Shown here piece after piece: positions 1,477 to 33,238 of a stretch of DNA of 64,000 bases. Below the pieces are notes generated by a model. That model did no database searches. It saw only the letters and a list, made by a program, of their open reading frames with translations, and was not told the origin of the DNA. The stretch covers positions 2,505-66,504 of the forward strand of contig DASVPJ010000041.1 of the NCBI GenBank assembly GCA_036382875.1, written 5' to 3'. Source of the DNA: Mycobacteriales bacterium. GTDB taxonomy: Bacteria; Actinomycetota; Actinomycetes; BP-191. The position numbers and the translations under genes were made by a program. Within the stretch, counting starts at the first letter, position 1. Every line of letters starts with the position of its first letter.

Positions 1477-1622
1477 CCGTGGTGCTCGCCGACGCGGCCC
1501 CCACCGGCGCGGGGCTCGCGATCGTCGGCGTCATCCTGCTGGCGTTCGTCGCGATCGTGATCGCGGCCGTGTTCTTCTCGGTGCGCTTCCTCCTGCGGCG
1601 GGGGCGGCGCGGTCAGTCCTGA
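1473..1622 (+). CDS. Small single-TM protein (49 aa)
   Basis: ATG 1473 overlaps the TGA of the upstream gene (ATGA coupling); GGAGAG SD; GC3-rich; MTVVLADAAPTGAGLAIVGVILLAFVAIVIAAVFFSVRFLLRRGRRGQS is one TM helix plus a basic tail. Confidence 0.5.
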   Translation: MTVVLADAAPTGAGLAIVGVILLAFVAIVIAAVFFSVRFLLRRGRRGQS

Positions 1623-2574: not shown

Positions 2575-2635
2575 GGTCGTCCCCCTCGGGGGGCAGTCGG
2601 GAAACCTGTCACACCCCGGCCGTACGCTCCTGGGC

Positions 2636-5413: not shown

Positions 5414-5489
5414 GGCCGAACGTCACCGAATCCGGACATCACCCGCCGCCCCCTCAAGACCCCGGGGGCCGGGGTCCGACCCGTTCTGC

Positions 5490-6407: not shown

Positions 6408-6874
6408 CCGAGGAACGCGCCCTCGCCGCGCTGGACGCCGCCGGCGTCGCCTACCGCGTCGTCCGGCACGGCCCGGTCCGCAGCCTGGCCGAGGCCGCCG
6501 CCGCGCGCGGCGTGACGCCGGCCCAGGTCGTGAAGACGCTCGTCGTGCGCCGGGGCGAGGGCGACCACCTGTTCGTGCTGGTGCCGGGCGACCGGACGAT
6601 CTCCTGGCCGAAGCTGCGCGACCTGCTCGGCGTCAGCCGGCTGTCCCTGCCCGACGCCGGGGCGGCGCGCGACGCGACCGGCTACGAGCGCGGCACGATC
6701 ACGCCGTTCGGCTCGCTGGTGCAATGGCCTTCTATTGTCGACGAAAACGTTTCCGGGGAAATCACGCTCGGCGCCGGAGCGCACGGTGTCGCGGTCGCCG
6801 TGGAATCGGCGGACATCGTCGCCGCATTGAACGCCACCGTCGCCGACGTCTCCGAACCCGAGGACGCCGGATAA
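6404..6874 (+). CDS. ybaK: YbaK/ProX-type aminoacyl-tRNA deacylase
   Basis: GTG start overlapping upstream TGA (GTGA); family pattern (VKTLVVRRGEGDHLFVLVPGDR...WPKLRDLLGV...ITPFG). Confidence 0.8.
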   Translation: MTEERALAALDAAGVAYRVVRHGPVRSLAEAAAARGVTPAQVVKTLVVRRGEGDHLFVLVPGDRTISWPKLRDLLGVSRLSLPDAGAARDATGYERGTITPFGSLVQWPSIVDENVSGEITLGAGAHGVAVAVESADIVAALNATVADVSEPEDAG

Positions 6875-6884
6875 CCGCGCCCCG

Positions 6885-7925
6885 CTAAACGCAGCCCGCG
6901 CGCCGCCCGATCCGGCGCAACCCGGTCAGGTCGCCCGCGCCGTAGAGCGCCGACCCCACCGGCTCCAGCTCCGGCCGCATCATCTGGTGGTCCGCGTCGA
7001 CGTGGTCGAGCCCCATCACGTGCCCCAGCTCGTGCAGCAGCAGCTCGCCCTCCGTCCGCCCGGCGCCGAACCCGGAGCCGACGCCCGCCAGCCGCGCGAC
7101 GTCGACCACCACGAACCCGTGCCGGATCCGCGGCCGCCCCCCGCGCCCGGCGACCGGCTGCTCGAACCCGCCCGTCGCCGCGCGGCTGCCGCCGAGCAGC
7201 GCCGAGTCGGTGGCGTGGGTCCACGCGACGACGAGGTCGGCCTCGTACCGGAACCCGCGCCCGCCCGGCACGTAGCGCGTGCTGCCCAGCTCGCGGAAGC
7301 GCACCCCCGTCTCCCACGTGACCCGCCGCAACGCCTCCCGCAGGTCGGCCAGCGACGTGCCGCGCGCGGCGGCGGCGTTGACGCGGAACGTCACGACGGC
7401 GCACGGGTTCCACCGCGCGGGGACGCCGCGGGCGAGGAACAGGTACCGGTACGCGCGCGGGTCGCCGAGCCCGGTGTCCGTCACCTCGAGCGCCGCCGGC
7501 TCGCTCGCCGCGCCCGCGCCGGCCGCGAGCGGCACCACGGCCCGGACCTCGTACGTCGCCGCCTCCCGCCGCGCCAGCCGGGCGACCGCGGTGCCCGCGT
7601 GGTCGAGGACGACGCGCGCCACGACCGCCCACTCGGGCCCGGTCGCGAGCTGCACCTCGGCCTCGCGCCCGGCGAACGCGGGCGCGGTCACGGTGACGTC
7701 GACCGGCGCGTTCGGCGGCACCAGCCGCGGCGACGCGGCGACGGAGACGGCGGCCCCGAGCGGGGCGACCCGCCCGGGCGGCGCGCCCGGCGGCCCGCCC
7801 CTCAACGGGCTCGCCGGGGCGCCCGGTCCGGCACCCGGTCCGGCAGCCGGCGCGATGCCCGGCGCCGCGAGAACGGCCGCGGCGGCCACGATCACCGCGC
7901 GCCGGACGGCACACGAGAAGTCCAT
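6885..7925 (-). CDS. Secreted zinc metalloprotease (zincin, matrixin/snapalysin-like HExxHxxGxxH)
   Basis: ATG 7925 with GGGGGA SD; signal peptide MDFSCAVRRAVIVAAAAVLAAPGIAPAAG; catalytic motif HELGHVMGLDHVDADHQMM (Met-turn). Confidence 0.8.
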   Translation of the reverse strand: MDFSCAVRRAVIVAAAAVLAAPGIAPAAGPGAGPGAPASPLRGGPPGAPPGRVAPLGAAVSVAASPRLVPPNAPVDVTVTAPAFAGREAEVQLATGPEWAVVARVVLDHAGTAVARLARREAATYEVRAVVPLAAGAGAASEPAALEVTDTGLGDPRAYRYLFLARGVPARWNPCAVVTFRVNAAAARGTSLADLREALRRVTWETGVRFRELGSTRYVPGGRGFRYEADLVVAWTHATDSALLGGSRAATGGFEQPVAGRGGRPRIRHGFVVVDVARLAGVGSGFGAGRTEGELLLHELGHVMGLDHVDADHQMMRPELEPVGSALYGAGDLTGLRRIGRRAGCV

Positions 7926-8095
7926 GAACGTTCCCCCGTTCACGTGCGTTCCGCCCCCGCGGCCGCCCGTTGCGACGAGTCTTACGCCCGTTTTTGTCAG
8001 CCCCCTTCCCCATCATTGGCACGTCCGCGCCATTGGCGCTCCTGCGCCGGTGGCGGAACCACCCGCCCGTGCCACGGCACCTAACGTCCAAGGGG

Positions 8096-9070
8096 ATGGA
8101 ATTCTTGTTGCACATCGCCGGCATCGAGCCGCTGGAGGAGCGGCTCTATCGCGCCCTGCTCCGTACGTCGCCGCTGTCCCTGCCCGAGATCGCCGACACG
8201 CTCGGCGTTCCCGAGGGGCTCCTCCGCGGCCCGGTCGAACGCCTCGTCGCGATCGGCTTCGTCACCACGCTCACCGACGAGGGCGACCTCTACGTCCCCG
8301 TCCCGCCCGACCTCGCCCTGCACCTCGTGGTGAGCCGCGAGGAGCTCAAGCTGCAGCGGCGCCTGGAGGAGCTGAGCCGATTACGCGGCTCGGCCGCCCG
8401 CCTCTCCCGGCAGCTCGTCGGCGAGGCGAAGGAGAGCCGCATCGACGTCGTGCACGTCGTCGACGGCGACCCGCTGGTGCGCCGCAAGATGTCCGACGTC
8501 GCGCTCCTCGCCCGCGGCGAGGTCCGCATCCTCGAGCCGATGCCGCTGCCCGAGGAGGACCTCGAGACGCAGCCCGAGGTGACCCGCAAGGTCATCTACG
8601 AGCGCGCCGCGCTCGACGAGCCCGACGTGCTCGACCGCGTCCAGCGCCGCCAGATCGTCGGCGACCAGGTGCGCCTCATCCCGAAGCCGCCCGCGCGGCT
8701 CGTGCTCGCCGACGGCGACCTGGCGTTCGTCGGCCTCGACCCCGACCCGCAGGGGAAGGCGCGCGGCGCGCTGGTCCACCCGTCGCCGCTGCTGGCCACG
8801 CTGAGCACGGTGTTCGACCTGCTGTGGGACCGCGCGATCCCGCTCGACGTCGGCGTGCGGGGCGGCGCCGACACCGGCTGGCGGATCAGCGACGAGGACG
8901 CCGCCATGCTCCGGCTGCTCGCCGCCGGCCTCAAGGACCAGGCGATCGCCCGGCACCTCGGCATCGGCCTGCGCACGGTCGTGCGCCGCATCGGCAACCT
9001 GTCCCGCGCGCTGGACGCGGAGACGCGGTTCCAGGCCGGGCTGCAGGCCGCCAGGCGCGGCCTGCTCTGA
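8096..9070 (+). CDS. LuxR-family transcriptional regulator (C-terminal GerE-type HTH)
   Basis: ATG 8096 after AAGGGG SD; C-terminal LuxR HTH (DEDAAMLRLLAAGLKDQAIARHLGIGLRTVVRRIGNL); divergent from protease gene. Confidence 0.8.
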   Translation: MEFLLHIAGIEPLEERLYRALLRTSPLSLPEIADTLGVPEGLLRGPVERLVAIGFVTTLTDEGDLYVPVPPDLALHLVVSREELKLQRRLEELSRLRGSAARLSRQLVGEAKESRIDVVHVVDGDPLVRRKMSDVALLARGEVRILEPMPLPEEDLETQPEVTRKVIYERAALDEPDVLDRVQRRQIVGDQVRLIPKPPARLVLADGDLAFVGLDPDPQGKARGALVHPSPLLATLSTVFDLLWDRAIPLDVGVRGGADTGWRISDEDAAMLRLLAAGLKDQAIARHLGIGLRTVVRRIGNLSRALDAETRFQAGLQAARRGLL

Positions 9071-9110
9071 CCGATGCCCCTGGCGAAGGGGAGCCGCGGC
9101 CGGGCGTCGA

Positions 9111-9965
9111 ATGACCACCCTCGTGAGACTCCGACACGCCCTCCCCCTCGCCCTCGCCGCGCTCACCCTGGCAGTGCCGTCGCAGGCCGCGCCGCCGCTG
9201 CGCTACGTCGCGCTCGGCGACTCGTACAGCGCGGCCTCCGGCGTGCTGCCGCCGGACCCGTTCGCGCCGCCGGAGTGCCTGCGCTCGCTGAGCAACTTCG
9301 CGAACGTCGTCGCCGACGCCACCGGCGCGGCGCTCACCGACGTCACGTGCGGCGCCGCCGAGACCGGCCACTTCTTCGCGCCGCAGTACGACAACGTCCC
9401 GCCGCAGCTCGACGCGCTCACCAAGGACGCCCAGCTCGTCACCATGACGATCGGCGGCAACGACAGCGGCGTCTTCATCAACGCGATCGTGAGCTGCGGC
9501 TCCGCCGGGATGTCCACCGGCGGCCAGGGCAGCCCGTGCAAGGACCGCTACGGCACGTCGTTCGAGGACACGATCCGCTCGACCACGTACCCGTCGCTCG
9601 TCGCCGCGCTCGGCGCGGTGCGCGACCGCGCGCCGCGCGCCAAGGTGGCGATCCTCGGCTACCCGTGGATCCTGCCGGAGACGGTCGGCTGCTTCGAACG
9701 CATGCCGGTCGCCGAGGGCGACGTGCCGTACCTGCGCGGCGTGCAGGCGACGTTGAACGACGCCGTCGCCCGCGCCGCCGCCGCGACCGGCGCGACGTTC
9801 GTCGACCTCAGCGCCGTCTCGGACGCGCACGACGCCTGCCGCCCGATCGGCGAGCGCTGGATCGAGCCGGTCGTCACGACCACCAACCCGGTCGCCGTGC
9901 ACCCGAACGCCCTCGGCGAGGCCGGCATGGCCGCCGAGACGATGCGCGTGCTGAAGCTCGGCTGA
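9111..9965 (+). CDS. Secreted SGNH/GDSL hydrolase (lipase/esterase)
   Basis: Signal peptide; GDSYS block (YVALGDSYSA), GGND block (TIGGNDSG), C-terminal catalytic region. Confidence 0.8.
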   Translation: MTTLVRLRHALPLALAALTLAVPSQAAPPLRYVALGDSYSAASGVLPPDPFAPPECLRSLSNFANVVADATGAALTDVTCGAAETGHFFAPQYDNVPPQLDALTKDAQLVTMTIGGNDSGVFINAIVSCGSAGMSTGGQGSPCKDRYGTSFEDTIRSTTYPSLVAALGAVRDRAPRAKVAILGYPWILPETVGCFERMPVAEGDVPYLRGVQATLNDAVARAAAATGATFVDLSAVSDAHDACRPIGERWIEPVVTTTNPVAVHPNALGEAGMAAETMRVLKLG

Positions 9966-9966
9966 C

Positions 9967-10812
9967 GTGCCGACCGCCGAGGAGGTCAGGGACGCGCAGC
10001 GGGCCGCGTGGGCGGGCCTGTCCGCGGGCTGGGAGAAGTGGGACGCGGTCATCATGGACCAGCTCCGGCCGGTCACGACCGCGATCGTCGAACGCCTCGG
10101 CGTGGCCCCGGACCAGCACCACCTCGACGTCGCCGCGGGCACCGGCGAGCCGGGCCTGACCGTCGCGCGGCTGGCGCCGGAGGGGCGGGTCGTGCTGACC
10201 GACCTGTCGCCGGAGATGCTCGACGTCGCCGCCCGCCGCGCCCGCGCGCAGGGCGTCGCGAACGTCGAGACGGCCGTGTGCAGCGCCGACGACCTGCCGT
10301 TCGAGGACGCGTCGTTCGACAGCGTGTCGGTGCGGTTCGGGTTCATGTTCTTCCCGGACCTGGCCCCCGCGACGGCCGAGATCGCGCGGGTGCTCCGGCC
10401 CGGCGGCCGGCTCTGCGCGTCGGTCTGGGTCCGGCCCGAGGCCAACCCGTGGACGACGATCGCCATGCGCGCGATCGGCACCGAGGCGCTGGTCCCGCCG
10501 CCCGCGCCCGACGGGCCGAACATGTACCGCTGCGCCGCGCCCGGCGCCGTCGCCGCGCTCTACGAGGCCGCCGGGCTGCGCGACGTCGAGGAGTGGGACG
10601 TCGACGTCGCGCTCGTGACCCGTTCGGCCGAGGAGTACTGGGAAATGATCAGCGAGCACGTCTCGCTGGCCGTCGTGGCGCTCCAGCAGGTCGACGCGCC
10701 CGCGCGGGAACGGATCCGCGCGCGGGCCATCGCGGACGTCGCCGCGTTCGCCCAGGACGGCGAGGTGCGGGTGCCCGGCGCGGCGCGCTGCATCGCCGGT
10801 ACGAAGCCATGA
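9967..10812 (+). CDS. Class I SAM-dependent methyltransferase
   Basis: GTG start 1 nt after upstream stop; motif I (LDVAAGTGEPGL), DLSPEML, acidic/aromatic post-I regions (SADDLPFEDASFD). Confidence 0.8.
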   Translation: MPTAEEVRDAQRAAWAGLSAGWEKWDAVIMDQLRPVTTAIVERLGVAPDQHHLDVAAGTGEPGLTVARLAPEGRVVLTDLSPEMLDVAARRARAQGVANVETAVCSADDLPFEDASFDSVSVRFGFMFFPDLAPATAEIARVLRPGGRLCASVWVRPEANPWTTIAMRAIGTEALVPPPAPDGPNMYRCAAPGAVAALYEAAGLRDVEEWDVDVALVTRSAEEYWEMISEHVSLAVVALQQVDAPARERIRARAIADVAAFAQDGEVRVPGAARCIAGTKP

Positions 10813-10838
10813 CCGCCAGCACACCCAGGAGGCCCACC

Positions 10839-11015
10839 ATGCCCGTCCGCACCCTGCTCGCCGCGACGGCGCTCGCGCTCGTCGCGGTGCCGTTCGCCGG
10901 CCCGTCGCAGGCCGGCTGCACCAGCGACCTGCTCGGCACCCGCCCGCCGGACCCGCACAGCATCACCGCGACGTACATCCAGGCGGCGGCGGACTTCGTC
11001 GCCTGCGCGGTCTGA
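10839..11015 (+). CDS. Small secreted protein (59 aa, 2 Cys)
   Basis: ATG preceded by AGGAGG; GC3-rich; signal peptide MPVRTLLAATALALVAVPFAGPSQAG then 33-aa mature part. Confidence 0.45.
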   Translation: MPVRTLLAATALALVAVPFAGPSQAGCTSDLLGTRPPDPHSITATYIQAAADFVACAV

Positions 11016-11125: not shown

Positions 11126-11863
11126 GTGGTGCTCAAGTGGTTCCCGGACGAGGCCGCCGCCGATCGCTACGCCGCTTTGCTGCCCGCCCTGGACACGCTG
11201 CGTTCGCGCGGCGTCCCCGTGCCGGTCTACTCCGAGGTGCGCGTCGTCGACGGATGGACCGTGTCGGCGCAGCAGCGCCTGCCGGGGACGTCGCCGCGCA
11301 ACCCGCCGCCCGCGGTGGTGGCCCGGGTGTTCGAGTGCACCGCGCTGATGGCCGGGATCGAGTGCCCGCTGCCGACGCCCGACGGGCTGCCCTGGGGCGA
11401 GTCGGTCGTGCGCGCGCTCACCGCCGGCTCGGAGGAGTGGGCGCGGCACGAGCCGATGCGCGCCGGCGGGCCGCGCAGCGCCGCCGTGCTGGACCGGGTC
11501 CGCGCCGTCGGCGCCGAGGCCGACCCGGCGTGGTTCCCCTCGAACGGGCTCGTGCACCTCGACCTGCACACCGACAACGTCCTCGTCGGCGACCGCGGCA
11601 CGCTGACCGGGATCATCGACTGGGACGGCGCGTGCGCGGGCGACCCGCGCTTCGACCTCGTCCGGTTCGCGTTCGACCTCGACGGTCACGACCAGCCGGT
11701 CTGGGCGGACGTCGAGGCGACCGGCATCGAGCGACGGGTGCTGCTGGCCTACGCCGCGCACCACGCGCTGCGTTGCACGTCCTGGCAGATCCAGCAGCGC
11801 ACCGACGACGTGCCGCGCCAGCTCGCCCGCGCCGAGCGCGTCCTCGACCGGTACGGCGCCTAG
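11126..11863 (+). CDS. Aminoglycoside/small-molecule phosphotransferase (APH/protein-kinase-like) family protein; annotated from first in-frame GTG, true N-terminus probably upstream (non-canonical start or truncation)
   Basis: Brenner motif HLDLHTDNVLV and IIDWDGACAGDPRFD; conserved ATP-binding VLK at the very N-terminus; frame is open back to 11018 (RDRLRELGYELGSRAEGGLSEGAWFATAPDGAPVVLK) but contains no ATG/GTG/TTG. Confidence 0.65.
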   Translation: MVLKWFPDEAAADRYAALLPALDTLRSRGVPVPVYSEVRVVDGWTVSAQQRLPGTSPRNPPPAVVARVFECTALMAGIECPLPTPDGLPWGESVVRALTAGSEEWARHEPMRAGGPRSAAVLDRVRAVGAEADPAWFPSNGLVHLDLHTDNVLVGDRGTLTGIIDWDGACAGDPRFDLVRFAFDLDGHDQPVWADVEATGIERRVLLAYAAHHALRCTSWQIQQRTDDVPRQLARAERVLDRYGA

Positions 11864-13261: not shown

Positions 13262-14176
13262 CTAGGCGGGGCCGCGCAGCGTGACGTCGACCGCGCCGCC
13301 CACGCGCTCGCGGATCGTCGTGCACCGCGTGCCGGTCGGCACCTCGGTCACCTGCGTCGCGCCGGTCATGCCGAGGTCGCGCACCGCCTTGTCCACCAGC
13401 GCCCGCGTCGCGGCGAGCGGCCGGCACTGCCTCGCGATCTCGCGCAGCCGCGCGGCGAGCGCGACGTGCCCGCCCTGCTCGTCCGCCGGGTCGGTCCCGC
13501 GGGCCAGGAGCCAGACGGTGCGGGTGACCGGGTCGGCGCTGCCGGCGTCGGTGCACCGGCCCGCGTCGCGCGGCGTGACGGTCCACCCGACGAGGCCGGT
13601 GCGGGCGACCTCGGCGCGGGCGAACGCCACCGCCTCGGCCTGGGTGAAGCAGCGCGAGCCGAGCCCGGCGACGTAGTCGTCGAGCGACTCCTGCAGGTCG
13701 ATGAGCGCGACGTTCTGGCCCTGGCCCGCCGGGAGCGGCGTGCCGCCGGACGGCGCCGGGTCGGCGGCGGGCTGCACGAGGATGCCGCCGTGGCCGTTGT
13801 CGTACGCGACCAGCGGCGGCGCCGCGACGCCGAGGTCACGCGTCCACTGCGCCGCGCAGTCGGCGACGGGGTCGCCGGAGACGGCGGTGATGATCGACGC
13901 CGAGCCGCCGATCTGGCACTGCAGCGACGTGGTGTCGCGGGGGTCGCCGGCCCTGACGATCGCCCAGCCGATCGTCCCGCTGGCGGCCAGGGTGACCCCG
14001 GTGACGCCGGCCACGAGCTGCGCGCGGCGGCGACGGCGGGGGGAGGGAACAGGGGGTACGGGCATGGCCACGATCCGTTCGAGCAGGGCCTCGCGGGCCT
14101 CGGCACCGGTCGCTCGGGCCACCTGCTCGTCGGCCACGCGCGCCAGCCGGCGCACCGCGTCGTCGTGGGAGCTCAC
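13262..14176 (-). CDS. Anti-sigma factor (membrane-spanning), cognate to upstream ECF sigma
   Basis: GTG 14176 overlaps sigma gene stop (GTGA); one TM helix (AQLVAGVTGVTLAASGTIGWAIV); GC3-rich; Cys-containing extracytoplasmic domain. Confidence 0.65.
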   Translation of the reverse strand: MSSHDDAVRRLARVADEQVARATGAEAREALLERIVAMPVPPVPSPRRRRRAQLVAGVTGVTLAASGTIGWAIVRAGDPRDTTSLQCQIGGSASIITAVSGDPVADCAAQWTRDLGVAAPPLVAYDNGHGGILVQPAADPAPSGGTPLPAGQGQNVALIDLQESLDDYVAGLGSRCFTQAEAVAFARAEVARTGLVGWTVTPRDAGRCTDAGSADPVTRTVWLLARGTDPADEQGGHVALAARLREIARQCRPLAATRALVDKAVRDLGMTGATQVTEVPTGTRCTTIRERVGGAVDVTLRGPA

Positions 14177-14760
14177 AGGCCGTCCTCCGTCGTACCGGGA
14201 CGGGCGATCGCCCGTCGTGCCGTCGCATGTCCGGCCGCGGCCGTGCGTTGCACGTCCCGCCGCCGGGCCTCCGCGAAGCGGTGGCGGGCCCGGTGCAGCC
14301 GCACCCGGACGAGCGGGCGGCTCACGCCCAGCGCCACGGCGAGCTCCTCGTGCGTCAGCCCCTCCCACGCCACGAGCGCCAGCAGCTCGCGGTCGCTCTC
14401 GCGCAACGCCGCGAACGCCCGCGCCACCGAGCCGTCGGTCTCCGGCGCCGGCACCGCCTCGCCGAGGACGGCGAGCTCGGCCGCGAGGCGCTCGGTCAGC
14501 GCGGCGCGGCGGCGTTCGCCCCGGCGGTGGTTCGCCAGCGCGCGGCGCGCGACGCCGTAGACCCACGGCCGCAGCTCGTCGCCCGCGGGCGCGTCGTCGA
14601 AGCGACGCCACAGCGTCAGGAACGTCTCCGCCACGACCTCGGCGGCGTCCTGCGGGTCGGCGAGGCGGCGCGCGGCGTAGCCGCACACCGGCGCGTAGAG
14701 CGCGCGGTACGCGCTCTCGAACAGCTCGCGCCGTTCGTCGTCGTCCACCCAGCCGCCCAC
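14173..14760 (-). CDS. ECF (sigma-70 family group 4) RNA polymerase sigma factor
   Basis: Region 2 (ELFESAYRALYAPVCGYAARRLADPQDAAEVVAETFLTLWRRFDD) and region 4 (LALVAWEGLTHEELAVALGVSRPLVRVRLHRARHRF). Confidence 0.85.
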   Translation of the reverse strand: MGGWVDDDERRELFESAYRALYAPVCGYAARRLADPQDAAEVVAETFLTLWRRFDDAPAGDELRPWVYGVARRALANHRRGERRRAALTERLAAELAVLGEAVPAPETDGSVARAFAALRESDRELLALVAWEGLTHEELAVALGVSRPLVRVRLHRARHRFAEARRRDVQRTAAAGHATARRAIARPGTTEDGL

Positions 14761-14809: not shown

Positions 14810-15661
14810 TTGCACCTCGGCCCCCGCGCCGCCCGGCGCCTCTACGCTGCGGCCGTGGACGCCGCCGTCGCGCAGCTCGCCGCCCTCGTCGCGCAGGGCA
14901 ACGCCGCCCTCGCCGGCGACGCCGAGGCCGGTGCGCGGGTCGAGGCCGGCTCGACGTTCCGGTACGTGCGGGCGGTGCGGTTCGAGCGGCAGGAGGGCTC
15001 GCCGCCCGTGACGACGCACGCGGAGGACAGCGCGGCGGGCTGGTTCCGGCAACTCGCGGAGTGGGGGGTGACGGCGCTCTGGCTCGACCCGCGGCCGCTC
15101 GCCGTCCCGACGCTCGCCCCGCACCTGCTCGCGGCGTGGACCAACGGCAGCCGCGTCTCGATCGTCACGGAGGGCGCGGAGCCGCGGCTGCGGTGGATCG
15201 CGTCGCGGCACGTCGACCGCGTGCCGACGGAGGCGGACGAGCGGGTGTGGGCGGTCCACTGCGTCGGGCGGCCCGACATCGCGGACCTCGCCCCGCGGCC
15301 GACGATCCCCGAGGCGGCGGCCGCGTTGGAGGCGCTCGTCCGGGCGGCGCGCGAGCTCGCCCGCCGGATGGACGAGACGTTCTGGGGCGGTCAGCTCGAA
15401 CGCGCCCTCGCCCGGCTCACCGACGACGACCCCGCGACGAAGCACCACGACGACGTCCTGCCGCCCTCGGCCGAGCTCGACCGCCGCCGGCTGTTCGCGG
15501 CGGCCGTCGGCGCGTACGTGTTCGGCGGCATGGGCACCTGGAACGACATCGGGCCGCCGCCCGACGACGAGGAGGCCAACGCCGAGTACGACCGGGTCAC
15601 GCCCGCCCTCTACGCCGCGGTCCTCGACGCCGTCGCCGCCGCGGTGAACCCGCGCCGGTGA
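14810..15661 (+). CDS. Hypothetical protein (start codon uncertain, TTG 14810 or downstream GTG)
   Basis: GC3-rich frame, non-repetitive composition; divergent from ECF sigma gene; no recognised motif. Confidence 0.5.
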   Translation: MHLGPRAARRLYAAAVDAAVAQLAALVAQGNAALAGDAEAGARVEAGSTFRYVRAVRFERQEGSPPVTTHAEDSAAGWFRQLAEWGVTALWLDPRPLAVPTLAPHLLAAWTNGSRVSIVTEGAEPRLRWIASRHVDRVPTEADERVWAVHCVGRPDIADLAPRPTIPEAAAALEALVRAARELARRMDETFWGGQLERALARLTDDDPATKHHDDVLPPSAELDRRRLFAAAVGAYVFGGMGTWNDIGPPPDDEEANAEYDRVTPALYAAVLDAVAAAVNPRR

Positions 15662-15774
15662 GCCCGTCGCGCGACGCCCCGACCGGCTGATCCGGCCCGG
15701 CGGGCGGGGGCGGCGCGCGTACCATGGACCGAGCCGCACGAGGCGGTGGTCGAGGTGCGGAGGGGGGCGGCCGC

Positions 15775-16227
15775 GTGTACAAGGCGATCGTTCGTTCGCT
15801 GATCCGGAAGGACGTCGCCGCGCTGGTCGCGGGCGACCCGGGCCCGGCGGCGGCGAGGTACGCCGACGACGCCGTCCTGAGGTTCCCAGGCCAGAACTCC
15901 TGGGCGATGCAGCACCGGGACACCCCGCCGTCGACCGAGGAGTTCGCGACGCACCGCGGCCGCGCCGAGATCGAGGCGTTCCTCGCCCGGTACACCGCCG
16001 AGGGCATGAAGATGCACGTCGACGACATCCTGGTGAACGGCTTCCCCTGGCACACCCGCGCGGCGGTGCGGGTCACCCATGTGGCGCCGGACCGGACCGA
16101 GACGCGCGGCGTCATGTTCATCACCTCCCGCTGGGGCAAGGTCGTCGCGCAGGAGGACTACGAGGACACGCAGGCCATCGCGGCCCGCGAAGCCGGTCGC
16201 ACTCCCTCGGCCGCCGGCGGCCGGTGA
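15775..16227 (+). CDS. SnoaL-like/NTF2-fold protein (first gene of terpenoid-type operon)
   Basis: GTG 15775 after GGAGGGGGG; NTF2-like pattern (FLARYTAEGMKMHVDDILVNGFPWHTRAAVRVTH...WGKVVAQEDYEDT); stop overlaps next gene's start. Confidence 0.6.
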   Translation: MYKAIVRSLIRKDVAALVAGDPGPAAARYADDAVLRFPGQNSWAMQHRDTPPSTEEFATHRGRAEIEAFLARYTAEGMKMHVDDILVNGFPWHTRAAVRVTHVAPDRTETRGVMFITSRWGKVVAQEDYEDTQAIAAREAGRTPSAAGGR

Positions 16228-17228
16228 CCGTCTTCGCCTCGCGCGAGGCGACGTTCTCCGGTCTCGACGAGCTCCCGCTCGCGCCCGTCGAGGACGAGCT
16301 CGCCCGGAGGCTGACGGCCGGCTCGGCGTTCGACGACGTGTACGCCCACGTGCTCGCGGTGCCGGGGAAGCGGCTGCGCGCCCGGCTCGTCCTCGGCTGC
16401 GCGGCGCTCGGCGAGGCGCCGCTCACCGCGTGGGACCGGCGGGACGCGGTCGAGCTCGCCGCCGTGATCGAGATGCTGCACGAGGCGTCGCTGATCCACG
16501 ACGACATCTGCGACGGCTCCACCGAACGCCGTGGCGCCCCGTCCGTCGCGGCGGCGTTCGGCGTCGGCCGCGCGGCCCGCGCCGGGTTCCACCTGGCGGG
16601 GGAGGCCCTGCGGCTGTGCGCCGACGTCCTCGACCGCAGCGACACGCTGCGCCGCATCACGCCGTCGAGCCGGCGCGTGGGCGACGGCGGGCTCGGGGCG
16701 CTGTCGTTCGGCCAGCTCCTCGAGACCGTGGCGCCGACCGGTGACGTCGCGTCGTCCCGGCGCCACTACGGCAAGGTCGCGCGGGCGAAGACCGGCACGA
16801 TGTTCCGGCTGGCCTGCGAGATGGGCGCGGCCGTGGCGCGGTGCGGTGACGCCGAGCGCGCGGCGCTGCGGACGTTCGCGGACCGGCTCGCCGTCGCGTA
16901 CCAGATCGTCGACGACGTGCGCGACGTCGAGGGCGCCGCGACGCTCGGCAAGCGGCGCGGCACCGACGCGTCCCGCCGTACGTTGTCGTGGCCGATCATC
17001 GAGTGGCTCGCGACCTCGCCCACGGCGCGCGATCGCTGGGCGGCGGCCGACGTCGCCCCCGTCGCGTTGTGCGACGACGTCACCGCGTCCGGCGCGACCG
17101 TCCGGGCCCGGCGCGAGGCGGCGCGCGTCGTCGGGGAAGCCGTCGACGCGCTGCGCGTGCTGCGGCCGTCCGCGGCCACCCGCGCCCTGGCCGACCTCGC
17201 CACGCGGACCGTCGGGGACGGACGGTGA
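16224..17228 (+). CDS. Polyprenyl diphosphate synthase (trans-isoprenyl diphosphate synthase)
   Basis: First Asp-rich motif LIHDDICDGSTERRG, second QIVDDVRD; GTG start in GTGA overlap with upstream gene. Confidence 0.85.
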   Translation: MTVFASREATFSGLDELPLAPVEDELARRLTAGSAFDDVYAHVLAVPGKRLRARLVLGCAALGEAPLTAWDRRDAVELAAVIEMLHEASLIHDDICDGSTERRGAPSVAAAFGVGRAARAGFHLAGEALRLCADVLDRSDTLRRITPSSRRVGDGGLGALSFGQLLETVAPTGDVASSRRHYGKVARAKTGTMFRLACEMGAAVARCGDAERAALRTFADRLAVAYQIVDDVRDVEGAATLGKRRGTDASRRTLSWPIIEWLATSPTARDRWAAADVAPVALCDDVTASGATVRARREAARVVGEAVDALRVLRPSAATRALADLATRTVGDGR

Positions 17229-18457
17229 CCGCCGACGCGCTCGTGCGGGCGGCGTTGCTGGCCCGTGGCAGCGTTGCGCTGCGCGCGGCCCCGCCCGTCG
17301 AGCGGGTGCTCCGCGCGCGGTCACCGCGCGCGCTCGCCCGGGCCGCCCTCGTGCCCGCGGGGCGGAACCTCGGCATGGCGATCGCGATGCTGCCGGCCGG
17401 CCAGCGGCACGAGGCCACCGCGGCGTTCCTGGCCTGCCGGGTGCTCGACGCGTTCGAGGACCTCGGCCCCGACCCGGTGGCCGGCATCCACGCCGCGGCG
17501 CGCTACCTCACCGGCTCGTCACCGGCCATGCCCGCCGCCGGCACGCTGCGCGCGAGCCGGCCGTCCGAGCACCTCGACCGCGCGCTCGCCGTCCGCATCG
17601 ACCTCGTACGCGCGCTCGTCACCTCGCTCGACGCCGACCGCGGGCGGCGCGTCGAACGCCTCGTCGCCGACGTCGCCGCCGCGATGGCCGCGCACGCCGG
17701 CCGGCAGGAGCGGCGCGCGTACGGCGGCGACGTCCTCGGCCGCGCCGTCGCGTACGCCGGCGAGGTCGTCACCGACGAGGCCGGCGACGACGGTCCGGCC
17801 GACCGCGGCGTGCACCGCGCCGTCGGCTACCTGCTGCAGCTCGCCAACGACCTCCGCGACGACACCCGCGCGCCGTACGGCGCGGACTCCGCCGAGGAGC
17901 TGCGCTACGTCGTCTTCCTGTCGTCGCTGACCGGGTCGCTCGCCGCGCTGGACCTCGTCAGGTCGCTCCACCGCCGGGCCGCGAGCTGCGGCGGCCGCGT
18001 CGCGGTCGCCGCGATGATGCTGCACACGACCGCGTACTTCTGCCGTGCCGCCGGTGTGCGGCCGCCCGTCCCGCGCCGCGCGCGGCTCCTGCGCGCCGTG
18101 CTGGCCGCGCGCGGCGAGCGGCCGTTCGAGCGGCTCTGCCGCCGCGTCGAGGTCGCCGCCGACGCCTGCCTCAACCGCACCGTCACCGCGGCCGGCGCCG
18201 GCGACGACCTCGTGCTGTTCACGGCACCCCGCGGCACGACCGGGCGGGGCGTCGCCGCGCTGGCCGTCGACGCGGCCACCCACCTCATGGCGCCGCTGCC
18301 CGCCGGCCCGTTGCGCGGCCCGCTGCCGCCCGCGCAGGTGCGGGCCATGATGCTCGCCGACCACGTCGTACTCGACGCCGTCGAGCCGACGGACGACGGC
18401 GACACCGGCGACCTGCGCGAGCTCGCCGACCTCCTGCAGCGGGCGGCGGCGTCGTGA
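17225..18457 (+). CDS. Squalene/phytoene synthase family (head-to-head isoprenoid synthase-like) protein
   Basis: GTGA-coupled start; class-1 isoprenoid synthase fold signatures with atypical first motif (FLACRVLDAFEDLG) and second motif YLLQLANDLRDD. Confidence 0.6.
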   Translation: MTADALVRAALLARGSVALRAAPPVERVLRARSPRALARAALVPAGRNLGMAIAMLPAGQRHEATAAFLACRVLDAFEDLGPDPVAGIHAAARYLTGSSPAMPAAGTLRASRPSEHLDRALAVRIDLVRALVTSLDADRGRRVERLVADVAAAMAAHAGRQERRAYGGDVLGRAVAYAGEVVTDEAGDDGPADRGVHRAVGYLLQLANDLRDDTRAPYGADSAEELRYVVFLSSLTGSLAALDLVRSLHRRAASCGGRVAVAAMMLHTTAYFCRAAGVRPPVPRRARLLRAVLAARGERPFERLCRRVEVAADACLNRTVTAAGAGDDLVLFTAPRGTTGRGVAALAVDAATHLMAPLPAGPLRGPLPPAQVRAMMLADHVVLDAVEPTDDGDTGDLRELADLLQRAAAS

Positions 18458-19470
18458 CCGCCGTCACCGACGTCCGCCCCGCTCCGCCGGCGGTCCCGCG
18501 CGCGTTCCCGCGCCTCGAACGCCTCGCCGAGCGCGTGCTGCGCGTCGAGCGCGGCGCCAACGTGTTCCCGATCGGCCACGTGCTCTGCTACGTCGCGCTG
18601 CTCGCGTCGTGCCTCAGCCCGTTCGGCCCCCGCGCCTGGTGGACCGCCGCGCCGGCGATCGTGCTGCTGACGTTGCTGAACTACTCGGCCACCGTCGGGG
18701 TGCTGCACATGCACGCGCACCGCCCGCTGTTCGTGTCCAGGCTGCCGAACCGGCTCGCCGACCTGGTCTGCTGCTTCCCGTGCATGCTCAGCGCCACCGA
18801 GATGCGCGTCATGCACGTGTCGCACCACCACCGGTTCGACAACGGCCCGCGCGACGTCACCTCCACGGTCGGCTACGAGACCGGCGGCCGCGCGGTCTGG
18901 TACTGGCTGCGCTTCCCGTGGCGCGTGAAGGCCGCCTGCGTGGACGAGATCCTGCGGCGCGCGGACTCACCGGCGCGGCGTACGCGGCGGCGGCAGCTCC
19001 TGTTCGACGAGGCGGTCGTCATCGGCACGGTCACCGCGCTCACCGTCGCGTGGCCGTACCCGATGCTGGCGTTCTACTGGCTGCCGTTCGTGCTGACGTT
19101 GCTGACGAGCGGCTACTTCGCCTGGCTGACGCACGCGCCGGCCACCGGGCGGGCCGGCGACAGCGCCTCGATCAACACCGTCGGCAACGTCCTCAACTTC
19201 TTCGTGTTCAACCAGGGCTTCCACAGCGTCCACCACCGGTACCCGGGGATCCACTGGACCGAGATCCCGGACAAGCTCGCCATCCTGCTCGACGTGGACG
19301 ACGACGTGGTCGTGTCGTACTGGGTGACGCTCGACACCGCGTGGCGCATCGCGGCGCCGGAGCGCTTCCGCGAGCCGGAGTTCGGCGCGGCGTGGAAGCG
19401 GCGCCTCGCCGCGCGGCTCGCGACCGGCTCGTGCCGATCGAGGCTGCTGCCGTACTTCGTCAAGGTGTAA
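18454..19470 (+). CDS. Membrane fatty-acid desaturase/carotenoid ketolase-hydroxylase family di-iron enzyme
   Basis: GTGA-coupled start; three His boxes (HMHAHR, HVSHHHRF, HSVHHRYPGIHW) and several TM helices. Confidence 0.8.
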   Translation: MTAVTDVRPAPPAVPRAFPRLERLAERVLRVERGANVFPIGHVLCYVALLASCLSPFGPRAWWTAAPAIVLLTLLNYSATVGVLHMHAHRPLFVSRLPNRLADLVCCFPCMLSATEMRVMHVSHHHRFDNGPRDVTSTVGYETGGRAVWYWLRFPWRVKAACVDEILRRADSPARRTRRRQLLFDEAVVIGTVTALTVAWPYPMLAFYWLPFVLTLLTSGYFAWLTHAPATGRAGDSASINTVGNVLNFFVFNQGFHSVHHRYPGIHWTEIPDKLAILLDVDDDVVVSYWVTLDTAWRIAAPERFREPEFGAAWKRRLAARLATGSCRSRLLPYFVKV

Positions 19471-19555
19471 CGCGGCGCGCGCGTGCACCGCAGCGGGGTG
19501 GGGGAGGACACTCCGTGCGACCTGCCCGACCCGACCCCGCGAAGGTGACCAGACG

Positions 19556-19735
19556 ATGAAGAAGACGCTGCGGCTGTCCCGCGAGGAGCTTCGCGAGCTC
19601 ACCGCCCCCGAGCTCCAGGACGTGCAGGGTGGCACCCACCCGTTGATCACCGACGGCCACCACTGCTTCGGCACGACGCTCTGCGCCGGCCTCTCGTTGC
19701 CGACCGCCTGCGGCGTGCTCACCATCGACTGCTGA
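19556..19735 (+). CDS. RiPP-like precursor peptide (59 aa): leader MKKTLRLSREELRELTAPELQDVQGG plus Cys/Thr/Ser-rich core
   Basis: Not in ORF track (59 aa). ATG with AAGGTGA SD 7 nt upstream; 57 of 59 codons G/C-ending; class II lanthipeptide-like ELxxL leader ending GG; core THPLITDGHHCFGTTLCAGLSLPTACGVLTIDC has 4 Cys. Confidence 0.5.
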   Translation: MKKTLRLSREELRELTAPELQDVQGGTHPLITDGHHCFGTTLCAGLSLPTACGVLTIDC

Positions 19736-19766
19736 CGGGGCAGCGGACCTACGGTCTTGGCGCACG

Positions 19767-19851
19767 GCGGAGAGGGACAGGCCCGAGCGGGAAGCCCAGG
19801 TCAGACGGGTGCGCCGCCAGGGACTTGAACCCCGAACCCGCGGATTAAGAG
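19767..19851. repeat. attL: 85-bp direct repeat of tRNA-Lys 3' half plus 3' flank
   Basis: Near-identical (2 differences) to 28985..29070, which overlaps the intact tRNA-Lys; covers anticodon loop to acceptor 3' end plus about 35 bp. Confidence 0.7.
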
Positions 19852-20158
19852 GCAGGGCTACTACGTCCGAGGCAGTCCGGGGTAGTTGGTGACACCCCGC
19901 CTGACCTGCGACTTTGCGGAAGGCCGTGTCGTCGCAGTTCGGCACATCCGGGCTTGTCCGGCACCGCTTGTTATCGCAGTGTTAGCGCACTCATCGCGAT
20001 CGCGGGCGGCGCGGCCCGGGTCGCCCAACCGCGCCACAGGTCGTCGCGGCGCCGCGTGCGTAGGGTGTGCCCTTGAGGGTGAGCGGGTGGCGCATCAACG
20101 CGTATCATGCGATGACGAGGTGGCTTCTCGTTACGGGTAGTGCGATCGGGGGCAAGCC

Positions 20159-20533: not shown

Positions 20534-20878
20534 ATCGCACGCTGTTCTCGTGCTCCGTTGAATACCAACCTGAGCGAACGTGCCCGCGGCGAGCTCGGTG
20601 TCGATGCGGCATTAAACGCCAGCGCCTCGGCGGATCGTCTCACCGGCCTGCGGCTGAACGTCCTGCCGCTCGCGTCGCGCCAGTCGTACAGGTAGCCGCG
20701 GCCGCGCGGCGGATGCGAGGCTGGAGAGCGCGGGGTCGTGCCATCGACGGGTCGTCTCGTCGTCGGGCGACGACGTGAAGATGAGGATGCGGCGCACCCG
20801 CCGCAGGTCCGGCCGGGTTGCCAGCAATCCGCCACATCCGGCCTCAACGCGATGTTGAACGCCCCGCTCCGGGGAGCA

Positions 20879-20996
20879 AGCCGCAGGTCAGACGGGTGCG
20901 CCGCCAGGGACTTGAACCCTGGATCCGCGGACTTAAAGGCAGGGCAACTTCCGAGGCAGTCCGGGGCAGTTGGTGACAACCGCCTGACCTGCGGTT
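20879..20996. repeat. Degenerate internal copy of the att/tRNA-3' repeat plus conserved island-internal flank
   Basis: Shares caggtcagacgggtgcgccgccagggacttgaaccc with the att repeats and, after a diverged stretch, gcagggc...gaggcagtccgggg.agttggtgaca..cgcctgacctgcg with the island side of attL (19852..19910). Confidence 0.5.
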
Positions 20997-27475: not shown

Positions 27476-27745
27476 ATGAGCGCCATCGACCCGGCGTCGT
27501 TGCCGCCCGTTCTCGACGTCCCCACGGCCGGCCGGCTGCTCGGACTCGGCCGCTCCGCGGCCTACGACCTCGCCGTCGCCGAGCTCTGGCCGACGCCGGT
27601 CCTGCGGCTCGGACGGCGGCTGCGGATCCCGACCGCTCCGTTGCTGGCGCTTCTCGGCCTCGACCCTGGTCCGCTGTCGCAGTCCGGTGGCATGGTGACC
27701 GGGTCACCAACTGCCCCGGCTGCCTCCGAAGGAGGCAGGCCATGA
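27476..27745 (+). CDS. xis: Excisionase/Xis-family HTH DNA-binding protein
   Basis: GAGAGGAGAG SD; MerR/AlpA-like HTH (LDVPTAGRLLGLGRSAAYDLAVAELWPTPVLRLGRRLRIP); stop overlaps integrase ATG (ATGA). Confidence 0.7.
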   Translation: MSAIDPASLPPVLDVPTAGRLLGLGRSAAYDLAVAELWPTPVLRLGRRLRIPTAPLLALLGLDPGPLSQSGGMVTGSPTAPAASEGGRP

Positions 27746-28974
27746 CGAAAGAGTCGGGCGTGTACCAGCGGCACTCACGGCGCTGCCCGCGCAACGCGGG
27801 CGGTCGTGGCTACGCGCCGCACCGGTGCACCGGCACGTGGTCCTACGTCATCGACGTGGGCCGGGACGCCAACAACGAGAGAAGGCAGGAGACGAAGGGA
27901 GGCTTTCCGACCAAGCGGGAAGCGGTCGAGCAGCGGCGCAAGCGTCTCGGCGAGCTGAGGTCGCGGACGGGCGAGGCGTACGGGACGACGGTCGGCGCGT
28001 ACCTGGAGCAGTGGCTGTCGTGGAAGCGCGGCCTGCGGGACAGCACCCGGCTGTCCTACCGGCAGCACCTGGACGACTACCTGGTCCCGGCGCTTGGGCA
28101 GTACCGGCTCGCCGACCTGGAACGTCGGCCGGAGCTGATCGAGCAGATGTTCTCCAACCTCGTCACCGGGGTCAGCGGCAAGCCGTTGTCGCCGGCGTCG
28201 GTGCGGCGCATCTACTCGACGCTGCGCAGCGCGCTCAACAGCGCGGTGAAGCGGCGGATGCTGGCGCACAACCCGGCGTTGCACGTCGAGCTGCCGCGGA
28301 CGGCGCTGTACCGGCCGGTCGTGTGGGACGCGCAGCAGGTCGGCATCTTCCTCGACGCGATCCAGGGCCACCGGCTCTACGCGCTCTACGGCGTCGTCGT
28401 CCTGACCGGACTCCGGCGCGGCGAGGCGCTCGGGCTCCGGTGGGAGGACGTGGACCTGGACGAGGGCGTGCTGCACGTACGCCAGCAGGTCGTCGCGGTC
28501 GGCACGGAGGTCCGCATCGGCCCGCCGAAGACGAAGGCGGGGGAGCGGACGGTCGCGCTGTCCGAGGCGACCGTGGCGATGCTGCGCGAGCACCAGGCGC
28601 GGCAACGGCGCGAACGGCTCGCGTGGGGCGAGGCGTGGCACGACAGCGGCCACGTGTTCACCTACGAGGACGGCCGGATGCTGCGGCCGGACCACGTGAC
28701 GCACCTGTTCCGCAGGCTGGCGAAGGAGGCGGGGCTGCCGCTGATCCGGCTGCACAACCTGCGGCACACCAGCGCGAGCCTCGCGCTGGCGGCGGGCGTC
28801 CCGATGAAGGTCGTCAGCGACCGGCTCGGCCACTCCAGCGAGTCGATCACCTCGGCGCTCTACACGGTCGTCGTGCCCGCTGTGGCACGCGAGGCGGCCG
28901 AGCGGATCGCCAACGTCGTGCTGCTGCCGAGGGCACGGAGCGACGAGCACGAAGCCGTGTTAGCGCGGCGTTAG
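27742..28974 (+). CDS. int: Tyrosine-type site-specific integrase
   Basis: C-terminal catalytic region (LRRGEALGLRWEDVD, HNLRHTSASLALAAGVPMKVVSDRLGHSSESITSALY); adjacent to tRNA-Lys and attR. Confidence 0.9.
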   Translation: MTKESGVYQRHSRRCPRNAGGRGYAPHRCTGTWSYVIDVGRDANNERRQETKGGFPTKREAVEQRRKRLGELRSRTGEAYGTTVGAYLEQWLSWKRGLRDSTRLSYRQHLDDYLVPALGQYRLADLERRPELIEQMFSNLVTGVSGKPLSPASVRRIYSTLRSALNSAVKRRMLAHNPALHVELPRTALYRPVVWDAQQVGIFLDAIQGHRLYALYGVVVLTGLRRGEALGLRWEDVDLDEGVLHVRQQVVAVGTEVRIGPPKTKAGERTVALSEATVAMLREHQARQRRERLAWGEAWHDSGHVFTYEDGRMLRPDHVTHLFRRLAKEAGLPLIRLHNLRHTSASLALAAGVPMKVVSDRLGHSSESITSALYTVVVPAVAREAAERIANVVLLPRARSDEHEAVLARR

Positions 28975-28984
28975 CGCATGACCG

Positions 28985-29070
28985 GGAGAGGGCCAGGCCC
29001 GAGCGGGAAAGCCCAGGTCAGACGGGTGCGCCGCCAGGGACTTGAACCCCGAACCCGCGGATTAAGAGTC
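28985..29070. repeat. attR: direct repeat overlapping 3' half of tRNA-Lys
   Basis: Partner of 19767..19851. Confidence 0.7.
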
Positions 29071-29099
29071 CGCTGCTCTGCCAATTGAGCTAGCGGCGC
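29027..29099 (-). tRNA. tRNA-Lys (anticodon CTT), CCA not encoded
   Basis: Minus-strand cloverleaf GCGCCGC-TA-GCTC-AATTGGCA-GAGC-A-GCGGA-CTCTTAA-TCCGC-GGGTT-CGGGG-TTCAAGT-CCCTG-GCGGCGC-A; 73 nt. Confidence 0.85.
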
Positions 29100-32395: not shown

Positions 32396-32508
32396 CGCGG
32401 GCAGGCTACGGCGCCGCGCGCGGCGAATGCTTGACCCGGAGCCCGTTCCGCCGGTTTGCTCCACCTCTGCCCGAGATGCCCGGTCGACCCCTCTGCAAGG
32501 AGACCCTC

Positions 32509-32736
32509 GTGCGCCGTCTGCTCGCCCTGCCCCTCGTCGCGTTCGCGTTCGCGACCCCCGCCTCCGCCGCCGTGTCCTGCCACGGCGTGTACTCCGGCAG
32601 CACCGACGTCAGCGTCTGCGCCGGCATCGAGTGCGTCGACCTGTGCGGTCCGCGCCTCGTCGTCGACCCGCGCTGCTCCGGCGCGCCCTCGATCGCCGCC
32701 GCGCTGTGCGCCGCGATCGACGCGTACGAGCTCTGA
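32509..32736 (+). CDS. Small secreted 6-Cys protein, paralog 1 of 3 (75 aa)
   Basis: GTG after AAGGAGAC SD; signal peptide VRRLLALPLVAFAFATPASA; mature about 55 aa with 6 Cys. Confidence 0.55.
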   Translation: MRRLLALPLVAFAFATPASAAVSCHGVYSGSTDVSVCAGIECVDLCGPRLVVDPRCSGAPSIAAALCAAIDAYEL

Positions 32737-32762: not shown

Positions 32763-32975
32763 ATGCGCCGTCTGTTCGCCCTGCCCCTGATCGCCGCGGC
32801 GTTCGCCACGGCGAGCCCCGCCGGCGCGGTCGCCGCCTGCACGCCGACCGTCGTCGGCGCCTGCGTGTCGTACCAGTGCGGCGAGATCTGCGGGCCGGTC
32901 GAGGTGTGGCTCTACTGCGACCTCGACAGCCACCCGCGCATCCTCGCCTGCGACCTGATCAACCAGCTCGGCTGA
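32763..32975 (+). CDS. Small secreted 6-Cys protein, paralog 2 of 3 (70 aa)
   Basis: ATG after AAGGAGACC SD; MRRLFALPLIAAAFATASPAGA signal peptide; 6 Cys. Confidence 0.55.
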   Translation: MRRLFALPLIAAAFATASPAGAVAACTPTVVGACVSYQCGEICGPVEVWLYCDLDSHPRILACDLINQLG

Positions 32976-33004
32976 GCCCCGTTCTGCGAAGGAGCCCCTC
33001 CGTG

Positions 33005-33238
33005 ATGCGTCGTCTGCTCGCCGGTGCGGCTGTCGCCGCCGTGGCGTTCGGCGTCACCGCCCCCGCGTCCGCCGCCTGGTCCTGCCACGGCGTCGAGTCC
33101 GGCACCACCCGTGCCGGCGTCTGCGCCGGCTCGTGGTGCGTGGACGAGTGCTGGATCGTGGCCTGGACCTACTGCGAGGGCGCGAACGCCAAGGTCTGCA
33201 CCGCCGTCGACGGGCTCGGCGCCCCGCCCGGCCGCTGA
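33005..33238 (+). CDS. Small secreted 6-Cys protein, paralog 3 of 3 (77 aa)
   Basis: ATG after GAAGGAGCC SD; signal peptide MRRLLAGAAVAAVAFGVTAPASA; 6 Cys (WSCHGVESG...CAGSWCVDEC...YCEG...VC). Confidence 0.55.
   Translation: MRRLLAGAAVAAVAFGVTAPASAAWSCHGVESGTTRAGVCAGSWCVDECWIVAWTYCEGANAKVCTAVDGLGAPPGR

Follow-up and report, generated by a model that had tools for sequence, protein, structure and literature searches.

The 59-codon ORF described here, encoded in the window (i.e., the whole stretch of 64,000 nucleotides analysed), is a real, conserved protein-coding gene under purifying selection, and its product is best explained, with a probability of roughly 0.7, as a stand-alone class I lanthipeptide precursor (LanA); the LanB modifying it would be encoded on a different contig of the same binned genome. 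The ORF had been proposed in a sequence-only reading, and re-translation confirmed both its limits and the peptide given there, while the strong Shine-Dalgarno site and the 57 of 59 sense codons ending in G or C that had been cited in its favour were found again on the sequence. The description of the ORF as unlisted was partly true: an identical protein is annotated at NCBI, as the hypothetical protein VF519_15625 (HEX8004118.1) from a “Mycobacteriales bacterium” MAG. The features of the gene, its surroundings and the related loci are collected in Table 1.

Table 1. Coordinates of the peptide gene, its surroundings and the related loci (positions refer to the window unless a locus is named)
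Feature	Position	Strand	Basis or remarks
Peptide ORF (59 codons)	19556-19735	+	translation MKKTLRLSREELRELTAPELQDVQGGTHPLITDGHHCFGTTLCAGLSLPTACGVLTIDC, followed by the stop
Ribosome-binding site GAAGGTGA	19541..19548	+	read from the sequence; 7 nt from the ATG
Stop codon TGA	19733..19735	+	read from the sequence
Leader, residues 1-26, MKKTLRLSREELRELTAPELQDVQGG	19556..19633	+	LxLx(K/R)x5L box and ELxxVxGG end
Core, residues 27-59, THPLITDGHHCFGTTLCAGLSLPTACGVLTIDC	19634..19732	+	ortholog alignment
Terpenoid-type operon, five genes	14810..19470	+	frame plot and Pfam; shown for context, does not belong to the system
Displaced 3' part of tRNA-Lys(CTT) with 40 nt of flank, att repeat	19769..19851	-	direct-repeat families D1 and D4
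Tyrosine integrase	27742-28974		Phage_integrase match
Intact tRNA-Lys(CTT)	29025..29099	-	ARAGORN; Rfam RF00005, 66.8 bits
UbiE-type SAM methyltransferase and 68-aa Sec-signal Cys protein	9967-10812 and 10809-11015	+	Pfam, tblastn, blastn
Small secreted Cys proteins, window	32476-32736, 32763-32975, 33002-33238 (tandem), 10809-11015
Small secreted Cys proteins, family loci	L001 7790-7990; L002 546-1056; L005 650-853; L011 11829-12196
Small secreted Cys proteins, family loci	L013 9546-9722, 10207-10413; L016 5913-6624; L017 9600-9758
Ortholog neighbours, L009			APH-like and GNAT-like genes
Ortholog neighbours, L001 (8.8-kb contig)			CBM60 protein and other family peptides
Ortholog neighbours, L002			small secreted proteins and an SDR
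Ortholog neighbours, L005, L006, L008			another small secreted protein
Methyltransferase-LanB, L011	L011 16860-20153		Methyltransf_11/UbiE-type directly before full-length LanB; five to eight diverse precursors around (L011/L016)
Methyltransferase-LanB, L016	L016 9166-12844		same pair; LanB 71% identical to that of L011; eight family peptides
LanB locus, L017 (Frankiaceae)			related LanB; four family peptides; ABC-2 transporters; no LanC
LanB locus, L019 (Frankiaceae)			LanB 41% identical, second clade; five family peptides; LanC-LanB-(143 aa)-C39 ABC exporter

Leader, core and peptide family

A search of 5.8 billion proteins returned, besides the identical protein, four clusters with 73-83% identity, and a scan of one genome per species added one further copy at 83% (L009, from a Frankiaceae MAG), the single ortholog locus found in it. 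When 1.84 billion cluster representatives were searched exhaustively, no more than 54 matched at E<=0.001, five of them at E<=1e-10, and the subfamily of the window peptide is thus rare in public data. In the leader, the LxLx(K/R)x5L box is formed by L5, L7, R9 and L15, within MKKTLRLSREELRELT; the first three of these residues are invariant in the orthologs, and position 15 is occupied by either L or I. The Gly-Gly end consists of G25 and G26, which do not vary among the window peptide and the four orthologs aligned with it, nor in the L009 ortholog. The LxLxKx5L motif together with a Gly-Gly end is known from class I precursors of Bacteroidetes, often accompanied by a C39 protease (Walker et al., PMC7268733).

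Regarding the core, the four Cys counted in the sequence-only reading are there, although the Ser/Thr residues are seven and not six. Invariant in the five aligned sequences are T27, T32, T40, S47 and T56, together with C37, C43, C52 and C59, and 3 or 5 residues before each of these Cys stands a Thr/Ser that is likewise invariant (T32/C37, T40/C43, S47/C52 and T56/C59), a placement compatible with thioether formation. The N-terminal part of the core contains the motif TxPxxTDGHHCxGxxLC, which is kept in the more distant members P0010, P0024, P0026, P0027 and P0208-P0210 while their tails differ, and this suggests a conserved two-ring functional head. The motif is uncharacterised, the peptide being otherwise of a known kind.

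The leader is common to a much broader group of peptides. Five more small genes with the same leader and quite different cores are encoded in L001, and a profile search from L001-type sequences yielded at least 87 family proteins of 49-109 aa from Frankiaceae/Mycobacteriales metagenome genomes. Nearly all of the 87 start with the leader consensus MKRTL(x)LKRETLTELTxxDLxxVxGG, in which the last two residues may also be GA or AG. Their cores are rich in Cys, Ser and Thr, vary in sequence and can be sorted into several subfamilies; NCBI names one of the 87 “class I lanthipeptide”. The model NF038153 (lant_leader_L1a) is matched by 34 of 83 family members at E<=0.01, and some members carry PF28317 (Lant_leader_dom) matches, which appear only in precomputed annotations, the Pfam copy used for the scans seemingly being one without that family. 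The window peptide itself reaches 12.3 bits with NF038153 (E=0.14), below the curated cut-off of 22 bits, hence its PGAP label “hypothetical”. With that Pfam copy, neither the peptide nor nine relatives gave a significant match, the only one of any kind being ComC for P0062 (E=0.26).

An HMM trained exclusively on 21 leaders encoded beside LanB, none of them from the subfamily of the window peptide, matched the window ORF with 21.9 bits (E=6.8e-6), the sole significant match among the six-frame segments of the window, the second best of which scored 8.8 bits. Between the two types of LanB-associated leaders, that of the window scored 27.4 bits with the model of the methyltransferase/LanC-less LanB clade vs 14.8 bits with the L019-type model, keeping in mind that the models differ in size. 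Close relatives of the leader also occur in housekeeping regions, as orphans or in arrays devoid of enzymes (L020, L022 and L013). In L022, for instance, five tandem leader-family precursors are encoded between an mshC/cysS-like gene and metH (9807-10932) with no enzyme nearby, four of the five having GGTHV(G/D)C...(D/A)(G/T/D)CTH cores.

LanB loci and the candidate modification route

Pfam scans detected no LanM, LanB, LanC, LanKC, C39 transporter, radical-SAM or HopA1-like lyase in the 64-kb window; they covered the peptide ORF and 47 of the 54 gene calls, a set to which some small ORFs and a 2127-aa ORF with a strong coding signal (56625-63008, minus strand) do not belong. Within that scope, the earlier statement that the window holds no LanM/LanB/LanKC-type enzyme is upheld. 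Likewise, no Lan enzyme or exporter adjoins any ortholog in the loci examined, and neither in the window nor in the ortholog loci does the peptide belong to a cluster with LanB and LanC.

Unlike these loci, L011, L016, L017 and L019 contain a full-length LanB flanked by family peptides, and the dehydratases adjoining family members carry PF04738 and PF14028. The locus most closely tied to the window is that of the paralog P0062 (VF519_07185, HEX8002463.1), whose assembly prefix is the same as that of the window peptide. On another contig, represented by two independent assemblies (L010 and L011), P0062 is located 7.5 kb upstream of a UbiE-type SAM methyltransferase gene followed directly by a full-length LanB (Lant_dehydr_N, E=6e-108, plus Lant_dehydr_C), in a region that also encodes four further leader-family peptides, two small secreted Cys proteins and a UvrA-like ABC protein. 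At NCBI, the L011-type LanB corresponds to HEX8001061.1, 100% identical over the 815 residues compared and encoded on a 252-kb contig; a locus-tag tie between HEX8001061.1 and VF519 was not found, and the link of this LanB to the same genome rests on MAG binning. The possibility raised in the sequence-only reading that the enzymes may be distal is therefore supported by a methyltransferase-LanB pair beside paralogs on another contig, one of these paralogs being annotated in the same MAG. A scan of metagenome contigs with the LanB P0088 gave no match.

LanC (PF05147) was seen only in L019, where it accompanies LanB and a C39 ABC transporter (PF03412). No LanC or C39 transporter was detected in the sequence examined of L011 (up to LanB), L016 and L017, whose LanB clusters are the nearest to the leader type of the window; for L016, there is no LanC, protease, dedicated exporter or transporter within 10 kb on either side of LanB. 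LanM is absent from the window gene scans and from the precomputed Pfam lists of the family loci with gene tables that were examined, and those lists contain no HopA1-like lyase or radical-SAM gene either. Two proteins of 1008 and 431 aa near P0016 in L013 were considered as a divergent LanB and LanC and rejected, since they show no Lan domains at E<=1 (Pfam). Adjoining the LanB/leader-peptide cluster of L017 there is, furthermore, a thiopeptide-like set (1-7004) consisting of a YcaO gene and a split LanB, with Lant_dehydr_N and Lant_dehydr_C in separate genes.

The LanB-linked leader family supports the earlier proposal that leader and Cys/Ser/Thr-rich core make up a lanthipeptide-like RiPP precursor; from the resemblance to class II lanthipeptides proposed at the same time, the lanthipeptide part holds and the class II part does not, because the relatives are linked to LanB, never to LanM, and the leader is of a class I type. 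What we infer for the window peptide comprises its dehydration, ring pattern and cleavage, and any methylation or bioactivity. A LanB encoded elsewhere would bind the leader and dehydrate conserved Thr/Ser residues, the best candidate enzyme being the methyltransferase-LanB pair 7.5 kb from P0062. The predicted targets are T32, T40, S47 and T56, and perhaps T27, T41 and T50. The four conserved Cys would then add to the dehydro residues, and the spacing points to T32-C37, T40-C43, S47-C52 and T56-C59 (i to i+5, i+3, i+5 and i+3, respectively) as likely rings, whose closure could occur spontaneously or, should the genome encode a LanC, be carried out by that enzyme. Removal of the leader, after Gly26, might fall to a C39-peptidase ABC exporter such as that of the Frankiaceae locus L019, and the methyltransferase may add a methyl group.

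The absence of any modifying enzyme adjoining the ORF, in the window or in any ortholog locus, is also what would be expected if the peptide were not modified at all, or only by two disulfides, and were exported and cleaved by a C39 transporter as a double-glycine-leader peptide of the class II bacteriocin or signalling type. The Gly-Gly end, the conserved even number of Cys and weak sub-threshold matches to ComC (15.3 bits) and to a class IIb bacteriocin leader (14.9 bits) fit this explanation as well. However, those scores are to be read against cut-offs of 50 bits (NF033214, ComC) and 21.5 bits (TIGR03949, IIb), the leader family is repeatedly encoded beside LanB genes, an invariant Thr/Ser stands at a fixed spacing before each Cys, and no lone C39 transporter accompanies family peptides, the only one seen being part of the LanBC cluster of L019. 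An unmodified bacteriocin is thus less likely than a class I lanthipeptide, and unlikely in absolute terms.

More improbable still is that the leader has been reused by other RiPP machinery, such as a class V-type kinase/lyase or a radical-SAM thioether enzyme. Many family members are orphans far from any LanB, and APH-family phosphotransferase (kinase) genes are found near the L009 ortholog (9172-9950, minus strand) and in the window (11126-11863). Nevertheless, the two APH genes share no similarity, which makes their proximity to the peptide genes a probable coincidence, and no APH gene is encoded beside the other orthologs; the link to class V was rejected on these grounds, as two unrelated genes in a non-recurrent association. 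Neither the window scans nor the family-locus Pfam lists contain a HopA1-like lyase or radical-SAM gene, and LanB and the SAM methyltransferase are the only enzymes repeatedly clustered with the family.

Genomic surroundings and single-gene conservation

Upstream of the ORF, on the same strand and 85 nt away, ends the terpenoid-type operon, which encodes, in this order, an unknown protein of 283 aa, a SnoaL-like protein, a polyprenyl synthetase (E=4e-44), a 410-aa protein and a member of the fatty-acid-desaturase family (E=3e-33); an ECF sigma factor gene (14173-14760) is divergent from it. The 410-aa protein (17225-18457) has no Pfam or NCBIfam match, and its Asp-rich motifs DAFED and NDLRDD are reminiscent of those of squalene/phytoene synthases. 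It was also considered as a LanC, an assignment rejected because no LANC_like match appears at E<=1 and the motifs are squalene/phytoene-synthase-like instead. A scan of positions 19300-19900 revealed no promoter- or terminator-like site, and co-transcription of the ORF with the operon is possible because no terminator-like site separates them.

Such an arrangement, with the ORF 85 nt after the desaturase gene, would be in line with a peptide prenylated or lipidated by the operon and functionally part of it, and modification by the upstream prenyl chemistry had indeed been suggested earlier. The comparison of loci goes against that suggestion: tblastn detected no homolog of the operon proteins in any of 23 related loci, which leaves the prenylation idea without comparative support, and no ortholog keeps the neighbourhood, the ortholog neighbourhoods being all different from one another. 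In addition, the polyprenyl synthetase of the operon is of the chain-elongating kind and the 410-aa protein is squalene/phytoene-synthase-like; neither is a peptide prenyltransferase. This explanation is accordingly given very little credence.

Downstream, the 3' part of a tRNA-Lys starts 72 nt past the stop codon of the ORF. Exact 25-mer matches locate three copies of this 3' part, at 19808, 20895 and 29025, within att repeats at 19769-19851, 20876-20938 and 29006-29068, and the G+C content falls to 60-69% between the copies; an Rfam scan returned tRNA only. The three copies mark two tandem integrated elements of ~1.1 kb and ~8.1 kb, and these, together with the integrase and the G+C drop, place the ORF just outside the elements. 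Before integration, the ORF and the intact tRNA-Lys would have been convergent neighbours. Two other copies of the gene are found in comparable places. In L001, the element-end motif of the window recurs (CAGTTGGTGACACCCC..., at 8480-8580), behind a tRNA-Ser(TGA) fragment that comes directly after the ortholog. In L009, an apparent tRNA 3' fragment, identified by eye (~9085-9125), and a stretch 66% similar to the window island (8018-8685) lie ~1-2 kb from the ortholog. Given the tRNA fragments near the window, L001 and L009 copies, the peptide gene tends to be found at tRNA integration hot spots.

A second recurrent kind of neighbour is formed by small Sec-signal proteins of 50-86 aa with 2-6 Cys, encoded less than 500 bp from leader-family peptides in 8 of ~13 independent loci; ten small secreted Cys-containing neighbour proteins belong to no Pfam family. 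Three of these proteins are encoded in tandem in the window; without the tRNA-Lys island, ~3.6 kb would separate them from the ORF. Another one is paired with the UbiE-type methyltransferase, and this pair has an orthologous counterpart in the Frankiaceae MAG locus L013 (8614-9722), the secreted Cys proteins of the two pairs measuring 58-68 aa. Conservation of the pair amounts to 82-86%, the methyltransferases being 82% identical over 280 aa in tblastn (84-87% in blastn) and the small proteins 86%. In L013 the pair is immediately followed by the family peptide that NCBI names “class I lanthipeptide”, and in the window by an APH-family gene. The window pair is thereby a possible, if weak, candidate for a distant partner of the peptide.

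Between genomes, DNA similarity extends from ~34 nt before the ATG to the stop codon, and the flanks are unrelated. With L009, homology begins at window position 19522, and the ortholog there is preceded by a matching GAAGGTGG. It is as a single-gene unit that the peptide gene moves or persists. Among the six orthologous copies (73-83% identity), pairwise dN/dS is 0.04-0.44. For the core, dN is 0.03-0.15 vs a dS of 0.18-0.82, and core dN is usually below leader dN. These six copies with low dN/dS, along with the DNA homology confined to the ribosome-binding site and the coding sequence, establish the ORF as a protein-coding gene, and its composition is that of one: the G+C content by codon position is 0.63/0.49/0.97, and in a sliding frame plot GC3 is at its maximum (near-100% GC) in the ORF frame of the plus strand over 19500-19725, with the other two codon positions in plus-strand order. 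That the ORF is a spurious one of a high-G+C genome, as could be thought from its short length, the lack of a Pfam match and the many long non-genic ORFs overlapping the region, is effectively refuted by dN/dS values well below 1 and by conservation limited to ribosome-binding site and coding sequence in six orthologs from unrelated contexts, besides the GC3 of 0.97 in the correct frame pattern and the leader common to a broad family.

Relation to known systems and meaning

Class I precursors with LxLxKx5L/Gly-Gly leaders of the Bacteroidetes type, of which the pinensin family is an example, are the known systems with which the window peptide shares its box (L5-x-L7-x-R9-x5-L15), its GG end and its Cys/Ser/Thr-rich core (NF038153, PF28317). 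As in them, relatives of the peptide adjoin LanB, in L019 also LanC and a C39 ABC transporter. Unlike them, the window peptide is found in Actinomycetota (Mycobacteriales/Frankiaceae MAGs), is encoded alone and scores below the curated cut-off, and the LanB clade nearest to it is paired with a UbiE-type methyltransferase and has no adjacent LanC. Double-glycine class II bacteriocins and ComC resemble it in the short leader, the GG end and an ELxxV-like stretch before the cleavage site, but the scores with their models are far below the cut-offs and the genomic partners of the family are lanthipeptide dehydratases.

Prochlorosins are class II lanthipeptides of cyanobacteria, whose ProcA precursors, with a Nif11-type leader, are scattered in the genome and served by a single LanM, ProcM. 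The likeness lies in the large number of precursors, whose leader is conserved and whose cores vary widely, and in the location of several of them away from the synthetase, as is the case here for the orphans and enzyme-free arrays of the window, L020, L022 and L013. The differences are the LxLxK leader and the LanB, which take the place of the Nif11-type leader and LanM; that one enzyme would serve all copies is inferred here. Within Actinobacteria, the lanthiphage/OlvA-type systems are class I as well, combine LanB, LanC, a PF01135 O-methyltransferase and a PF14028 protein, are frequent in Frankia, and have the core motif TxDxCxxxCxxxC (bioRxiv 10.1101/2024.06.26.600839). In spite of the likeness of an actinobacterial class I system with a methyltransferase, the one beside LanB in the present family is of the UbiE/Methyltransf_11 type (PCMT gives only 13.6 bits), there is no adjacent LanC or stand-alone PF14028 gene, the leader is of another type and the core lacks TxDxCxxxCxxxC. 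As methyltransferase family, leader and core motif all differ, the window peptide does not belong to the lanthiphage/OlvA type. For Frankia-like bacteria, literature searches brought up nothing specific on dispersed precursors of class I or on LanB clusters lacking LanC.

What is unusual about the peptide is its phylum, its orphan location and the LanC-less LanB-methyltransferase clusters of its relatives; it is not surprising in kind. A broader picture can be drawn only tentatively, with the odds rather against it: a prochlorosin-like, combinatorial class I system in Frankiaceae/Mycobacteriales, in which a LanC-less LanB and a SAM methyltransferase would act on a leader-sharing library of precursors, some encoded in the cluster and others scattered singly by tRNA hot spots and small secreted Cys-rich proteins, the TxPxxTDGHHCxGxxLC head then being a new conserved two-ring pharmacophore. 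For RiPP mining, the peptide is useful independently of that picture. Without an enzyme nearby, its gene is invisible to cluster-based genome mining, and cluster-centred tools underestimate both the size and the dispersal of the precursor repertoire in actinobacterial MAGs. The LanB-linked leader family means that these MAGs carry class I leaders of the Bacteroidetes type, and its LanB-methyltransferase clusters without adjacent LanC raise a question: how, or whether, do the rings close? The TDGHHC...LC head, with its variable tails, is a candidate for a new lanthipeptide scaffold.
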